Source: an uncultured Gammaproteobacteria bacterium (GTDB lineage Bacteria; Patescibacteriota; Microgenomatia; UBA12405). Taken from it: a DNA stretch of 26,628 bases. Shown piece after piece: positions 21,634 through 26,628 of the stretch. Where the stretch lies: the NCBI GenBank assembly GCA_964571775.1, contig CAZNDF010000001.1:1-26628 (forward strand), in the 5' to 3' direction. The notes beneath the pieces are model-generated. The model was not told the DNA's origin. It made no database searches and saw nothing but the letters and a program-made list of their open reading frames with translations. Numbering within the stretch: the first letter of the stretch is position 1; every line of letters starts with the position of its first letter. The translations under genes were made by a program, and so were the position numbers.

Positions 21634-22884
21634 TTATTTAATTTGGCTGATTAAATCTTCAAAAGAAACTATTATTTGTTGGGAAGTTTCAAGTTTCTTT
21701 AGAGTAATTTGGTTGTTACTGGCTTCATTAGTGCCAATGATAGCCAAATAGGGAATATTCAGTGATAAAGCATATTTTATTTGTTTACCTAGTTTGTCGT
21801 TATCCGGATAAATAATACTAGAAATATTTTCTTGACGGAGTTTAGAGGTTAAATCTAGTATCTCTTTTTGTGTTTCAGTCCCAAGATTGGCGACTAAAAT
21901 TTTAGTAGTAGATTTATTTCCTTTTGGTAAAAGATCTAAAGTTTGAATAACATCAACGACCCTTTCAAAACCAAATGAGAAACCAACAGCAGGTACTTGG
22001 GGACCACCTAGAGTAGAAACTAAGTTGTCGTATCGACCACCACCTCCGATAGCTCCAATTTTTGGTTCAGTGACAGTAACTTCAAAAATAGTACCAGTGT
22101 AATAGTCGCAACCGCGGACCAAAGTTGGGTCAAAGATAAAAGCCGTTTGAGGTACACCAAGACCCTTTAAAAGATCTAAAACTTGTTTTAGATTTTCATC
22201 TGGTTGAGCTTGTTTGATATATTTAAAAATTTGATCAATTTGGCCAATAGATAGACCTTTGGAAGTGAGTTCATCTTTTACTCCATTCTCACTAATTTTG
22301 TCTAATTTATCAAGAGATTGTAGTACTGAATTTTGGCGTTCATTAATACCACTTTGAGATAAAATTGAGGATAAGACGGTGCGGCTATTAATTTTAATGA
22401 TAGCGTTTTTAAAACCCAATTTTTGAACACCTTGATAAATAACAGAAATTATTTCAGCATCAGCGATGGGGGAGCTGGTACCAAAAATATCTATATCACA
22501 TTGGACAAACTCCCGATAGCGGCCTTTTTGAGTATTTTCGGCACGCCAAACTGGTTGAATTTGATAGCGGCGAAAGGGTAAAGATAATTGATTATTATAG
22601 ATAGCTAAAACTTTGGAGGTGGGGACGGTTAAATCATAACGGAGGCCAATTTCTCGGTCGCCATTATCTTTGAAAAAGTAACCTAATTTATCATCAGTTT
22701 CACTACCATATTTACCTTTGAGGACAGAAGAATATTCTAAAGCAGGTGTTTCTAGTGGTTGAAAGCCGCAGGTTTCAAAAAGACTAGTTAAAGTATTTTT
22801 GACGTAATTTCTGACATACATGTCAGATGGTAAGAAATCTCGGAAGCCTTTTAGAGTTTGAGATTTAATATTTGATTGATTCAT
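21634..22884 (-). CDS. hisS: Histidine--tRNA ligase
   Basis: KGFRDFLP, LRYDLTVP, motif 2 WRAENTQKGRYREFVQCDID, GGGRYDNL, motif 3 GFSFGFER and anticodon domain KLGKQIKYA. Confidence 0.97.
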   Translation of the reverse strand: MNQSNIKSQTLKGFRDFLPSDMYVRNYVKNTLTSLFETCGFQPLETPALEYSSVLKGKYGSETDDKLGYFFKDNGDREIGLRYDLTVPTSKVLAIYNNQLSLPFRRYQIQPVWRAENTQKGRYREFVQCDIDIFGTSSPIADAEIISVIYQGVQKLGFKNAIIKINSRTVLSSILSQSGINERQNSVLQSLDKLDKISENGVKDELTSKGLSIGQIDQIFKYIKQAQPDENLKQVLDLLKGLGVPQTAFIFDPTLVRGCDYYTGTIFEVTVTEPKIGAIGGGGRYDNLVSTLGGPQVPAVGFSFGFERVVDVIQTLDLLPKGNKSTTKILVANLGTETQKEILDLTSKLRQENISSIIYPDNDKLGKQIKYALSLNIPYLAIIGTNEASNNQITLKKLETSQQIIVSFEDLISQIK

Positions 22885-22900
22885 AGTTGAATTTTAACAT

Positions 22901-23815
22901 TTAAATGGTTTGGGCTTGATATTTATTATTAACTGAATTAAAAAATAGTTTTTTGATTTTGGTGGAATCGACATCAGTGACTATTTGACTATTGTTTGAA
23001 CTTTTTTGTTTGATTAAAGTTTGTCCAGCAGAGTTGACTGAAACAAAATTATTTTCAGTTTTAAAAAGTTTAGGATTAATGGCGTAAGCGATGGCTAAGA
23101 CATCATACATGACCCCGCCTTTAAAGCCACCGTATTTTTTATCATATTGGTAATAGCTGATATATGAATTAACAATTTTTTTGAAATTATTGCCAATATC
23201 AGTGTTTTTGAATTGATTAAATTCGTTTGAAGTAAACATCACTTGGCGACAAATATTAATTGGGATGAGGACCTTTGGAGTGGAAAATTCTAGAATTATT
23301 TTTAGTGCCAAAGGGTCGTTGTAAACATTAAATTCAGCTTTTGAAGTGATATTGCCTTTTTGGTTAAAAACGCCACCAAGAATGATTATTTGATTAATTT
23401 TAGAAATTAAATCAGGACGGATTATCCCTAATAAAGCTAAGTTAGTACTTGGTCCAAGACAAATAATGTCAAAACTTTTCGTTGGGTTTTGCGATAATGA
23501 ATTGATCAAGAACTGGATGGCAGATGTTTTTTGAGACTTTGTTTTTAAATTAACATCAAAACCTCCAAGACCATTAAACCCATGTGATTTAGCAAACACG
23601 GGTTTTTTATTTAATGGGAGGCTAGCACCCTGATAAACAGGGATATTAGAATTCAATATTTGAAGAATGCTGAGAGTATTTTTGGTGGTATTTTTGATGT
23701 TTGAATTACCATAAGTAGTAGCAATTCCAATGATATTTAATTTTGAAGATATGGCTAAAAGGATAGCTAATGCATCGTCTACACCAGGGTCAGTATCAAT
23801 GATTATTTGTTTCAT
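22901..23815 (-). CDS. Nucleoside hydrolase (IUNH family)
   Basis: IIDTDPGVDDA, HG.NGLG, CLGPSTNLA and AEFNVYNDP. Confidence 0.93.
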   Translation of the reverse strand: MKQIIIDTDPGVDDALAILLAISSKLNIIGIATTYGNSNIKNTTKNTLSILQILNSNIPVYQGASLPLNKKPVFAKSHGFNGLGGFDVNLKTKSQKTSAIQFLINSLSQNPTKSFDIICLGPSTNLALLGIIRPDLISKINQIIILGGVFNQKGNITSKAEFNVYNDPLALKIILEFSTPKVLIPINICRQVMFTSNEFNQFKNTDIGNNFKKIVNSYISYYQYDKKYGGFKGGVMYDVLAIAYAINPKLFKTENNFVSVNSAGQTLIKQKSSNNSQIVTDVDSTKIKKLFFNSVNNKYQAQTI

Positions 23816-23817
23816 AA

Positions 23818-25329
23818 TTAGTAGGATATTGAAGAGATATCTGTTGGTTTTTTAATTAATAAAGTTTTAAAACCTAGATCAGCGGCAGGTTGAATATCGG
23901 TATCTTGTTGATCTCCAATTGAGGTGATATTTTGCGGTAGGTAAAGTCTAGAAATTTTTTTAAAGATTTCTTTTTTAAATTGAAAATCTTCACCTGAATA
24001 AATAGTTTCAAACTTATCTTTGATTCCTAAATAACTAATCACTTGATTAATCCAAATCATAGGAGAAGAGGATAGAAGAATTAATTTAAATTGTGGAGGG
24101 ATATTCAAGATAGCTTCGATTGATTTTTGATAGTCTTTAACTATATCTCTGGGATTAATATTCCAGACATTATTAAAATAATCATTTCGACTAATCTGAT
24201 ACCTATTAGATAAAAATTGACTAGCGCCGATCGGATCAGAAATAGCCTGTTTAAATATTTCTATGGCTTGATTCGTGGAAATATTTTCTTTTTGGCAAAT
24301 AAAATTAATTATATTTTGGTTAACAGTAGATTCTAAAGTTGATCCAGAATATCCGTTATTTTTACCATCGAGTTGGTATAAAGTTCCGTCCATGTCAAAA
24401 ATCATTACTTGTCGTGTCGCTTCTGATTCTACAATTTGAGAACATTGGTCTAAGTAATCAGTCACGTTAAATTTTATATTTACAGGGATATTCCGTTTTC
24501 GACTGTATGGAAGGGGAAAGCCACGATTTATTAGATCTTTAAAAGTTATTTTTCTACCAAGAATGTTTTCCCAGTTTAAGACTAGTTCTTTTTGAGCCTT
24601 AATTAAATTAAGACTGATTCCAAAAAGGTTTTGGTCGTCAAGGCTAGCTGATTCACCATCGCTCCATGGGTAGATATAAGGCTCGGATAAAGCAACTCGG
24701 TTGGACTTACTAATATTTACGACTCGTCCACCGAGAAAACTGATGTCTCGGAGATCAATCCAATCCATAAGATTAGTAACCGGTTCAAGATCACCAATAA
24801 AACCTACAGACTCAATATTTTCGTCTTTTATACCGATTTGCGACAAGAGGTTTTTGGCGGCTTTAATAGTCCCGCCAGTAAATAATCCATCATCAGCTAA
24901 AATTATTTTTCTTTTTTCAATATCAGGAATTTGGCTAGCGATTTTTTCTAGTTGTATTCTAAAGTCAGAAAATCCTTGACGAGGGATTTTGACCCCATCA
25001 GCTTTTCGGCTAATACCAAAACGAAAGAAACGGTCTTGATATTTTGAGTCAGTTTCAATTTGAGATAAAAGACATCTGTCTAAACAGATACAAATGCAAT
25101 CATTATCTTGTGATAATTTATTTATAATTTGTTTTTCGAGAGCTTGATTAATGTCGTCTTCTGAGTAAGCTCTAACTTCAATTTTTTCTACTGGTTGAAG
25201 ATTTTGTCGAAAAATATCAACAACTGATTCAAAATAGTCATTAGCTATTTTTTGGGGAAAATTGCCGATTTTATTTTGAATACCAATAGTATCTTGGGTA
25301 ATAACATAATTTTGTTTTTCTTGATTCAT
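23818..25329 (-). CDS. Type I phosphoribosyltransferase-like domain fused to a HAD-family hydrolase (503 aa)
   Basis: PRPP loop IILADDGLFTGGT; HAD motif I FDMDGTLY, II LLSSS, IV IGDQQDTD. Start moved to ATG 25329 because the upstream extension overlaps a terminator. Confidence 0.75.
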   Translation of the reverse strand: MNQEKQNYVITQDTIGIQNKIGNFPQKIANDYFESVVDIFRQNLQPVEKIEVRAYSEDDINQALEKQIINKLSQDNDCICICLDRCLLSQIETDSKYQDRFFRFGISRKADGVKIPRQGFSDFRIQLEKIASQIPDIEKRKIILADDGLFTGGTIKAAKNLLSQIGIKDENIESVGFIGDLEPVTNLMDWIDLRDISFLGGRVVNISKSNRVALSEPYIYPWSDGESASLDDQNLFGISLNLIKAQKELVLNWENILGRKITFKDLINRGFPLPYSRKRNIPVNIKFNVTDYLDQCSQIVESEATRQVMIFDMDGTLYQLDGKNNGYSGSTLESTVNQNIINFICQKENISTNQAIEIFKQAISDPIGASQFLSNRYQISRNDYFNNVWNINPRDIVKDYQKSIEAILNIPPQFKLILLSSSPMIWINQVISYLGIKDKFETIYSGEDFQFKKEIFKKISRLYLPQNITSIGDQQDTDIQPAADLGFKTLLIKKPTDISSISY

Positions 25330-25339
25330 AGTTTTTATT

Positions 25340-25418
25340 AAAAAATAAATCCCCGCAGGGAAGCGGGGATTGATTAATAATAAAAAGATTTTCAGGCGGC
25401 CAAAAACCCCGCGGTTTT
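25340..25418 (-). promoter_or_regulatory. Putative transcription attenuator 2 (protector, antiterminator, terminator)
   Basis: Terminator AATCCCCGC-ttccct-GCGGGGATT-TATTTTTT (25340-25371). Upstream GCGGGG (25407-25412) can pair with CCCCGC. AAAACC-gcgg-GGTTTT hairpin sequesters it. Confidence 0.6.
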
Positions 25419-25469
25419 GACAGCCACGGTATGGCAATGGTTTTTAATAAATTTAATTTTATTTTTCAT
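25392..25469 (-). CDS. Putative leader peptide 2, MKNKIKFIKNHCHTVAVKTAGFLAA (25 aa)
   Basis: Translated manually; His-Cys-His at codons 11-13; overlaps the antiterminator segment. Confidence 0.5.
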   Translation of the reverse strand: MKNKIKFIKNHCHTVAVKTAGFLAA

Positions 25470-25510
25470 ATTTTTTGGGTTGCCATCATTAAAATCATGA
25501 TGGACTTATG

Positions 25511-25585
25511 GGTGGTATATCGGACTTGAACCGACAACCTCAGCTTTCACAGAGCTGCGCTCTAACCAATTGAGCTAATACCACC
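25511..25585 (-). tRNA. tRNA-His(GUG), copy without encoded CCA
   Basis: Cloverleaf with encoded G-1 opposite C73, anticodon stem CAGCT/AGCTG, loop CTGTGAA and T-loop GGTTCAAGTCC. Confidence 0.95.
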
Positions 25586-25617
25586 AGGTAAGTTTGCTAA
25601 AGCAAATTAAAGTAAGA

Positions 25618-25650
25618 GAAATATGATTCAAAGAATTTGAATTATATTTC
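25618..25650. repeat. 15-bp AT-rich inverted repeat upstream of tRNA-His
   Basis: GAAATATGATTCAAA-gaa-TTTGAATTATATTTC; 14/15 Watson-Crick pairs. Confidence 0.7.
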
Positions 25651-25673
25651 ATTTTAAAGTGCTCCTAGTCCTT

Positions 25674-25741
25674 AAAAAAACAAAAAACCCGCCAGTTGGC
25701 GGGGTCAAGATACGTTGAAATCCACCAACTTAAAAGTTAGT
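25674..25741 (-). promoter_or_regulatory. Putative histidine-responsive transcription attenuator 1
   Basis: Minus strand: protector CTAACT-ttta-AGTTGG; antiterminator GTTGGTGG (25722-25729) with CCGCCAAC (25695-25702); terminator CCCGCC-aact-GGCGGG-TTTTTTGTTTTTTT. Confidence 0.8.
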
Positions 25742-25777
25742 GTGATGATGACTTGAACGTAATGTTTTGGTAAACAT
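25730..25777 (-). CDS. His leader peptide 1, MFTKTLRSSHHHTNF (15 aa)
   Basis: ATG TTT ACC AAA ACA TTA CGT TCA AGT CAT CAT CAC ACT AAC TTT TAA, 6 nt downstream of a -10 box and abutting the attenuator. Confidence 0.8.
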   Translation of the reverse strand: MFTKTLRSSHHHTNF

Positions 25778-25783
25778 ACTTGT

Positions 25784-25811
25784 ATTTTACTGAGGAAACA
25801 GGAAATGTCAA
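25784..25811 (-). promoter_or_regulatory. Sigma70 promoter, TTGACA-16-TAAAAT, for the His leader
   Basis: TTGACA = reverse complement of 25806-25811; TAAAAT = reverse complement of 25784-25789. Confidence 0.75.
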
Positions 25812-25831
25812 ATTTTTTGATAAAATCAGTT

Positions 25832-26539
25832 ATGAATATTGTAAAAATGGAAAATAATGAGTGGTTATTAGAAATTGATTTGGATGGTGGAAGAATTTAT
25901 AAACTGGCTTTTGGTGATCAGATTATTTTGGGAACTTTTGAAAGAATTGATGGTAAAAAAGGGAATACACATTTATGTGTTCCGAATTTTGCTAATGAGG
26001 GAGTGGAGAAATATGGGTTTGTATTTCATGGGCCGTTTAGAAATACTACTTGGAAAATATTAGGGAAATCGGATACGGCTTTAGAAATTAGGTGTGAAAT
26101 TGATGGTTTATCCGTAACGCAGTTTTTTAGATTGAAGGACAGTTTTAGTCAAGATATTGAGGTGTTAAATACTTCTAATGAAAAAAAGAGAGTTAATTTG
26201 GCAGTGCATAATTATTGGGATACAGAATTTGGTTGGCAGGGGACTAAACTAAATGGGGTTGATATTACTGAAGGGATCAAAACAAATCCAGAAGTATCTT
26301 TGAAAGATTTAAATACTATTGAGATAGTAGGTAAAAAAAATATTTTTTGGAAAGTGGAAAATTTTAAATTAGCTAAATTATGGACTGGAATTAAACAAGA
26401 AAAAGGGGTTAACTCTTATGATCGAAAATATATTTGTATTGAACCAGAAATGGAGTTTGAGGGGTTTGTGGAAACAGAAAAAAGTTGGCTTTTACCGGGA
26501 CAAAGAATTTTTTCAAAGCAAAGTATTGGACTAGAATAG
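25832..26539 (+). CDS. Aldose 1-epimerase / galactose mutarotase-like protein
   Basis: HLCVPNF, FHGPFRN..W, NLAVHNYW and YICIEP. Start moved to ATG 25832 (TGaTAAAAT 5 nt upstream) because ATG 25805 overlaps the divergent -35. Confidence 0.8.
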   Translation: MNIVKMENNEWLLEIDLDGGRIYKLAFGDQIILGTFERIDGKKGNTHLCVPNFANEGVEKYGFVFHGPFRNTTWKILGKSDTALEIRCEIDGLSVTQFFRLKDSFSQDIEVLNTSNEKKRVNLAVHNYWDTEFGWQGTKLNGVDITEGIKTNPEVSLKDLNTIEIVGKKNIFWKVENFKLAKLWTGIKQEKGVNSYDRKYICIEPEMEFEGFVETEKSWLLPGQRIFSKQSIGLE

Positions 26540-26543
26540 TTTT

Positions 26544-26621
26544 TGGGGTGGTATATCGGACTTGAACCGACAACCTCAGCTTTCACAGAGCTGCGCTCTA
26601 ACCAATTGAGCTAATACCACC
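26544..26621 (-). tRNA. tRNA-His(GUG), copy with encoded CCA
   Basis: Identical body to 25511-25585; ends ...ATACCACC-CCA. Confidence 0.95.
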
Positions 26622-26628
26622 ATGAGGA

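Follow-up and report, generated by a model that had tools for sequence, protein, structure and literature searches.

The window analysed here is the whole 26,628-nucleotide (nt) stretch of contig CAZNDF010000001.1, which is the entire contig, from an 82%-complete, 0.66-Mb genome of the candidate phyla radiation (CPR). Its histidyl-tRNA synthetase, HisS, is 74–88% identical to HisS relatives from Candidatus Shapirobacteria. Read along the minus strand, the locus comprises tRNA-His copy B, a divergent plus-strand gene, a short regulatory leader (leader 1), tRNA-His copy A, a second leader with its terminator (leader 2), and an operon ending in hisS. Leader 1 is a genuine and conserved cis-regulatory element specific for histidine, and with high probability it acts by classical ribosome-mediated attenuation. 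Its parts, and the tRNA gene that follows it, are listed below.

25784–25811, minus strand: promoter, with the −35 box TTGACA (25811–25806), a 16-nt spacer and the −10 box TAAAAT (25789–25784), matching 11 of 12 consensus positions.
25730–25777, minus strand: leader open reading frame (ORF) of 15 codons, MFTKTLRSSHHHTNF followed by the stop codon, with its ATG at 25777, 6 nt past the −10 box.
25750–25761, minus strand: outer protector, 5′ strand, lying within the ORF, with its partner at 25722–25711 (from the fold and from covariation).
25742–25750, minus strand: proposed regulatory histidine codons CAT CAT CAC, codons 10–12, unpaired in the predicted fold.
25735–25742, minus strand: segment 1, CACTAACT, the 5′ strand of the inner protector, formed by the last ORF codons (z = −4.3).
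25722–25730, minus strand: segment 2, AGTTGGTGG, which begins at the final base of the stop codon and has segment 1 or segment 3 as its partner.
25711–25722, minus strand: outer protector, 3′ strand, GATTTCAACGTA (from the fold and from partner permutation).
25674–25703, minus strand: intrinsic terminator, with CCCGCC (segment 3), the loop AACT and GGCGGG (segment 4) at 25703–25688, then T6-G-T7 at 25687–25674.
25585–25673, minus strand: spacer of 89 nt from the T-run of terminator 1 to tRNA-His A, containing a long hairpin (−17.3 kcal/mol, z = −3.6).
25510–25584, minus strand: tRNA-His(GTG) copy A, the proposed first regulated product (Rfam tRNA, 69 bits).

The promoter, the 15-codon ORF, the histidine codons, the hairpins, the terminator and the tRNA-His gene all lie on the minus strand where the first-pass annotation, made from the sequence of the window, had placed them. 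Segment 2 can pair in two directions. Upstream, CACTAACT (25742–25735) is complementary to AGTTGGTG (25730–25723). Downstream, GTTGGTGG (25729–25722) is complementary to CCGCCAAC (25702–25695), which lies within the 5′ arm and loop of the terminator, and this is the antiterminator pairing. The 110-nt leader RNA has a predicted folding energy of −29.7 kcal/mol (z = −3.4), lower than in 200 of 200 shuffles. The predicted fold consists of a long hairpin, made by the ORF with the sequence past its stop codon, followed by the terminator. The protector had earlier been described as CUAACU/AGUUGG. This inner helix is supported, but the protector is far larger, since the spacer past segment 2 forms a further stem with the 5′ portion of the ORF.

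TTGACA-16-TAAAAT is the sole 11/12 promoter match within 24800–26628. A shuffle scan of the same region gives about 7 promoter-like sites by expectation, and AT-rich DNA often contains lone short ORFs and terminators. Such figures would suit a short ORF of no regulatory role, whether it arose by chance, encodes a functional small peptide or belongs to a small RNA that has its own terminator. What raises leader 1 above chance is its conservation in relatives and not the single sequence. In a BLAST comparison of the region with 61 relatives, the leader core is conserved besides the tRNA. A covariance model built from 17 leaders (R1) has matches in 22 of 38 genomes of the genus and in 75 of 132 genomes of the order, the latter spread over 31 of 46 genera and 6 of 7 families, and mostly one per genome. 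Outside the order the matches are few and mostly doubtful. tRNA-His and/or hisS lies downstream of nearly all matches at E < 1e-3, with tRNA-His from a few nt to about 390 nt away. Nearly all of these matches have a short ORF with histidine codons and an ATG 6–8 nt past a −10 box, and the weaker matches are often bare terminators. The first-pass annotation had pointed to related genomes as the place to look for histidine ORFs before tRNA-His or hisS with covarying stems, and leaders of this kind were extracted from relatives in the copies described next.

The coding signature of the leader was taken from 65 extracted copies. The peptide is 11–16 codons long, apart from two exceptions of 21 and 23 codons, and every copy keeps the promoter-adjacent ATG and the stop codon. 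Each copy holds 2–5 histidine codons, mostly 3 and always in frame, and these are spelled CAT 124 times and CAC 65 times. Histidine makes up 20% of the leader residues versus 1.4% in the long ORFs of this genome. In 63 of the 65 copies, 0–5 nt separate the stop codon from the GGYGG core of segment 2 behind it. Frame, start and stop are thus kept while third codon positions drift, which argues against an RNA that merely needs its sequence. The N-terminal residues vary freely, and the peptide is unconserved besides the histidine codons and the codons that form helices, which speaks against a functional small peptide. Because the 5′ part of the ORF also covaries with the downstream RNA, and leaders for other amino acids stand ahead of cognate synthetase genes (both described below), a short ORF without regulatory role is very improbable.

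A T-box-like element would be an RNA that senses tRNA-His directly, with a histidine codon as specifier and no translation. The placement before tRNA and synthetase genes is as for T-boxes, and UGG is present in segment 2. This UGGC/UGGU is, however, mismatched to the end of tRNA-His, which has C as its discriminator, and the element is just about 100 nt long. One specifier would be enough, yet the copies carry 2–5 histidine codons with synonymous changes, in an open frame with a promoter-adjacent start and a stop at a fixed place. A cmscan of 24800–26628 at E up to 10 gives no match to the T-box (RF00230), to His_leader (RF00514) or to any other Rfam family at leader 1, and above threshold it finds only the two tRNAs. 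Direct sensing of the tRNA is therefore a very unlikely account of leader 1. Weak matches to the Phe_leader, rnk and L10 leader families at 25335–25495 are due to the hairpin-and-terminator shape of leader 2.

The helices are conserved along with the ORF. In an alignment of 67 sequences guided by the covariance model (A3), canonical pairs make up 95% of the terminator, 86% of the antiterminator and 74% of the inner protector. The outer protector columns of the model alignment are 52% canonical and uninformative. An alignment of the 17 leaders by MAFFT with RNAalifold (A2) gave just 10 pairs and missed the outer protector, because the register of this stem shifts between genera. For this reason register-free duplex energies were used, with 5000 permutations of the partners among 23 representatives whose N-terminal regions are less than 60% identical. 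For the outer protector, the true partners give −9.9 kcal/mol and the permuted partners −5.5 (z = −8.5); for the inner protector, the values are −8.3 and −6.8 (z = −4.3); for the antiterminator, −13.9 and −12.4 (z = −4.2); and for the terminator, −13.4 and −11.1 (z = −8.5). In each of these four, 0 of 5000 permutations were as good. The control, in which the 5′ part of the ORF was paired with the terminator arm, gave −2.7 versus −3.1 kcal/mol (z = +1.5), with 4699 permutations as good. The mean antiterminator duplex is thus comparable in energy to the terminator duplex. Segment 2 also tracks changes in the terminator, as GCCGGCGG occurs with the arm CCCCGGC, and GGTGGGG occurs with the arm and loop CCCCGCCACC. 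The geometry of classical ribosome-mediated attenuation, recognised at first reading in the window, therefore extends over the order, where the ORF, its histidine codons, the placement of the stop and the three helix types are all conserved.

The effect of the position of a ribosome was modelled on 63 sequences by masking the whole RNA up to a point 12 or 14 nt beyond the A-site codon and calculating the probability of the terminator helix. The median probability is 1.00 for the free RNA, falls to 0.54 (+14) or 0.43 (+12) with a ribosome at the first histidine codon, and is 1.00 with a ribosome at the stop codon. An earlier mask of 30 nt allowed the 5′ end to pair across the ribosome and gave no antiterminator for the window, and the calculation was redone with all upstream RNA masked. 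Because the model assumes equilibrium, it underrates a switch that operates while the RNA is being transcribed; the change goes in the predicted direction.

The start of the leader is in keeping with the rest of the genome. Among 538 long ORFs, TAnnAT ends 5, 6 and 7 nt before the ATG in 31, 46 and 21 cases (98 in total), against a background of about 7 at each position, and there is hardly any enrichment of Shine-Dalgarno cores. Initiation on leaderless mRNAs thus seems to be a major mode in this organism. The mode of 6 nt is the spacing found in leader 1, so a leaderless leader peptide would be in character, and transcription of leader 1 probably starts at or next to the ATG.

Leader 1 is very likely a transcription attenuator of the ribosome-mediated (leader-peptide) kind that monitors charged tRNA-His. 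In the proposed mechanism, transcription from at or next to the ATG would let a ribosome load at the 5′ end of a leaderless mRNA. With no ribosome, segment 2 would be held in the long protector hairpin, in which the ORF pairs with segment 2 and the spacer past it. A ribosome that reaches the stop codon would cover segment 2. In both cases segment 2 is unavailable, the terminator would form, and transcription would end at the U-tract. When charged tRNA-His is scarce, the ribosome would stall at codons 10–12, where it would melt the protector and leave segment 2 free. Free segment 2 would pair with the 5′ arm and loop of the terminator, and RNA polymerase would continue into tRNA-His.

The first-pass annotation regarded tRNA-His A as a spare gene that is switched on together with the genes downstream of it. 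An identical second copy is indeed present in the window (26620–26544), but in ten relatives the sole full-length tRNA-His match lies behind the attenuator (G014, G038, G048, G094, G110, G116, G128, G067, G111 and G100; G-numbers denote the genomes of relatives, with G000 the source genome, and L-numbers the extracted loci). In several genera the tRNA starts within about 12 nt of the U-tract, which leaves no room for a promoter of its own. The downstream genes are not simply co-transcribed with the tRNA, because a second histidine leader with its terminator (25469–25339) intervenes. It would follow the same logic and gate the operon that ends in hisS. With the two leaders in series, the tRNA would be under one switch and hisS under two. 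The parts of the second leader are as follows.

25392–25469, minus strand: second leader ORF, MKNKIKFIKNHCHTVAVKTAGFLAA followed by the stop codon, with histidine codons at 25439–25437 and 25433–25431 (H-x-H).
25339–25371, minus strand: terminator of the second attenuator, AATCCCCGC TTCCCT GCGGGGATT and a T-run.

In leader 2, ACCGTGG after H-x-H is complementary to CCGCGGGG (25414–25407), and CCGCGGGG is alternatively complementary to the terminator arm CCCCGC. In G048, CCGCGGGG is kept in a different reading frame, which indicates that the RNA is what is conserved. A second model, R2, scores 136 bits at leader 2 and has matches in 55 of 132 genomes of the order; almost all of these come right behind the tRNA-His that follows leader 1. 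In many relatives leader 2 has its ATG immediately next to the 3′ end of the tRNA or overlapping it (...CCACCCCATG...), for example in L138, L140, L145, L146 and L149 (G110, G089, G105, G108 and G097). Once the tRNA 3′ end is processed, the remaining mRNA would have its 5′ end at the AUG or no more than two bases from it, so that the processing step might on its own supply the second switch with its leaderless mRNA. In G005 and G087 the ATG of leader 2 lies 8–9 nt past a −10 box. A wider proposal is that tRNA-His controls its own gene. In many members of the order its sole copy would be transcribed only by read-through of a terminator, which is relieved when ribosomes on the leader wait for charged tRNA-His. 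Such a translation-based feedback loop on the supply of the tRNA would be chained, possibly via tRNA 3′ processing, to the second histidine leader for hisS. This proposal is tentative, its chances somewhat short of even. In the window, the 40 nt that lead from tRNA-His A to the leader 2 ATG (25470–25509, minus strand) contain a small hairpin, CCATCAT GATTTTA ATGATGG. It is found in the near relative G028 and is absent where the ATG is at or a few nt from the tRNA 3′ end.

Several observations weigh against attenuation as the control of this locus. Of the 38 genomes of the genus, 16 lack leader 1, and in these the divergent neighbour gene is followed directly by hisS. In the modelling, a ribosome at the last histidine codon leaves the median terminator probability at 0.96 (+14) or 0.93 (+12). 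The window sequence itself depends on the footprint, with a terminator probability at the first histidine codon of 0.88 (+14) versus 0.22 (+12). The ribosome-constrained fold suggested in the first-pass annotation thus agrees with the switch in the family median, where the terminator is about halved at the first histidine codon and fully formed at the stop, and is equivocal for the window. Leader 2 of the window starts 40 nt past the tRNA and has no visible ribosome-binding site. The 89-nt spacer before tRNA-His A holds the −10-like hexamers TAAAAT and TATAAT (within 25673–25585), and G014, G017 and G022 have an extended −10 box, TGnTAnAAT, between the terminator and the tRNA. Part of the tRNA transcription may therefore bypass the switch.

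Taken further, these −10-like boxes would suggest that leader and terminator form a separate short unit and that tRNA-His A is transcribed mainly from a promoter of its own in the spacer, so that the attenuator adds little here. The spacer, 25585–25673, has no promoter match of at least 9/12, and its TATAAT (25646–25641) sits within the stem of the stable spacer hairpin. The short distance from U-tract to tRNA in several other genera, noted above, also speaks against this arrangement. A unit without a target would leave the strict linkage to tRNA-His and hisS unexplained, and an internal promoter would supply a basal level and not replace the switch. Such a basal promoter for tRNA-His A may exist in this genome, but transcription mainly from it is unlikely, though less so than the T-box-like and non-regulatory accounts. 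As to the spacer itself, the apical part of its hairpin, AATTCAAA...TTTGAAT, is shared with G013. In many relatives another hairpin is conserved (AGGNC-AAATTT...AAATTTTGCCT), and the motif TTTCTTTAGGT lies past the terminator.

Attenuation by a leader peptide also fits further leaders that were by-catch of the R1 search, three of them for other amino acids and a fourth for histidine. They are leaderless, occur in L104 (G076), L095 (G101), L112 (G098) and L098 (G073), and their downstream genes were identified by NCBIfam. A leader with six threonines, MFKLVLTTTTTTQ..., precedes thrS in one relative; a CC-x-C leader, ...MVCCTSC, precedes an operon containing cysS in another; and an III leader, MSQTTKIIIT, precedes ileS. 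In one relative an HHHH leader, ...NNHHHHSS..., lies directly after a tRNA and ahead of hisG-hisE, and it is also an R2 match. Leaders that bear the amino acid of the downstream synthetase are hard to explain except by translation-based sensing. The source genome, G000, has an isoleucine leader as well (contig C12, 4911–4873, minus strand, outside the window). It consists of a −10 box, the ORF MKLSLSQIIIIK with its stop codon (isoleucine codons ATA ATT ATT ATT), a hairpin and a terminator whose T-run ends 12 nt from the ileS start codon. It came to light on inspection of the DNA before ileS. A coarse scan of the whole of G000 for the combination of −10 box, short ORF and terminator gave only the histidine leader and missed the isoleucine leader. 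Inspection of the upstream regions in G000 showed a short ORF without a threonine run before thrS and no leader before cysS. The data suggest that leaderless leader peptides play the part in this order that T-boxes play in Firmicutes.

The other genes of the locus are the following.

21634–25329, minus strand: operon behind the second attenuator, tightly packed, with gene gaps of −4 and 16 nt.
25329–23818, minus strand: phosphoribosyltransferase-HAD fusion, the first gene of this operon.
23815–22901, minus strand: inosine-uridine nucleoside hydrolase, the middle gene.
22884–21634, minus strand: hisS, the last gene.
25805–26539, plus strand: gene of 244 amino acids, divergent from the leader promoter, with its ATG overlapping the −35 box.
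26544–26620, minus strand: tRNA-His(GTG) copy B, with a body identical to that of copy A, an encoded CCA, and no leader before it.

The fusion and the nucleoside hydrolase (22901–25329) are nucleotide-salvage genes, and their presence in one histidine-attenuated operon with hisS has no evident rationale. The fusion gene likewise follows leader 2 in G019. Neither hisG nor hisD was found in the 82%-complete assembly. The 244-amino-acid product has no match in Pfam or NCBIfam; it shows aldose-1-epimerase-like motifs by eye, which is a candidate label only. Its gene adjoins tRNA-His and hisS in relatives whether or not the leader is present. Copy B of tRNA-His ends in ...CCACCCCA, including CCA, and copy A ends in ...CCACCCAT, without CCA; the contig ends 8 nt from copy B. 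The counterpart of copy B in relatives has a conserved extended −10 box, TGTTAAAAT. The two identical tRNA-His copies were considered as the ends of an integrated element. This was rejected, because the roughly 960 bp between them contain a gene found beside tRNA-His and hisS in relatives, whether these have one tRNA-His copy or two.

In its logic leader 1 resembles hisL, trpL and pheM. With the hisL attenuator of E. coli and Salmonella (Rfam RF00514) it shares a short ORF with a run of histidine codons and a set of protector, antiterminator and terminator hairpins, among which the position of a ribosome would choose, with charged tRNA-His as the signal. hisL has 7 histidine codons and a Shine-Dalgarno-led start, whereas leader 1 has 3 and would start leaderless; hisL targets biosynthesis genes, and leader 1 targets a tRNA gene and hisS. 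One relative places a leader of the second type before hisG, which is a hisL-like target. In the pheM leader of the E. coli pheST operon, cognate codons attenuate an aminoacyl-tRNA synthetase gene. The pheM leader differs in its amino acid, is unrelated in sequence, is Shine-Dalgarno-led, and has no tRNA gene in its regulated unit.

T-box riboswitches are functional analogues that gate synthetase genes by the charging of the cognate tRNA. They bind the tRNA directly without a ribosome, are larger and carry the conserved T-box sequence; the Rfam scan found no T-box at leader 1. A leaderless start, as predicted for leader 1, has counterparts in other phyla. For Deinococcus deserti, 14 leaderless leader peptides have been predicted ahead of genes for synthetases and biosynthesis (PMC4007540), and mycobacteria have leaderless poly-cysteine short ORFs, or cysteine attenuators (bioRxiv 10.1101/834739). 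In these the peptide starts at the 5′ end of the transcript, as it would in leader 1, with cognate codons before synthetase genes such as cysS. They differ from leader 1 in having no sequence relation to it and no described tRNA target or tandem arrangement. In Bacillus, a histidine leader peptide is predicted for a hisS paralogue and hisZ (Naville and Gautheret 2010, PMC2965389). It shares with leader 1 a histidine-rich short ORF and a terminator before a hisS-family gene, and differs in being a Firmicutes case known from prediction alone, with no tRNA gene.

The first-pass annotation knew of no leader-peptide attenuator whose first product is the cognate tRNA and of no histidine attenuation in CPR bacteria. 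A search of titles and abstracts likewise turned up no case in which such an attenuator has a tRNA gene as its product, and no paper linking leader-peptide attenuation with CPR or Patescibacteria. The individual parts do have precedents, in Bacillus (PMC2965389) and Deinococcus (PMC4007540). The mechanism is thus classical, and what is new is the tRNA target, the tandem attenuators with the second before hisS, the predicted leaderless start, and the CPR lineage.

Almost nothing is known of gene regulation in CPR/Patescibacteria. Through the leaders described here, the charging of the cognate tRNA would set the expression of tRNA-His, hisS, thrS, cysS, ileS and, in one relative, hisG. The leaders also form a signature by which annotation pipelines could find unannotated short ORFs in these genomes. 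The locus offers a compact, testable case of two attenuators in series. If the interpretation is true, an attenuator with cognate codons and a tRNA gene as its direct product would be a new kind of tRNA homeostasis.

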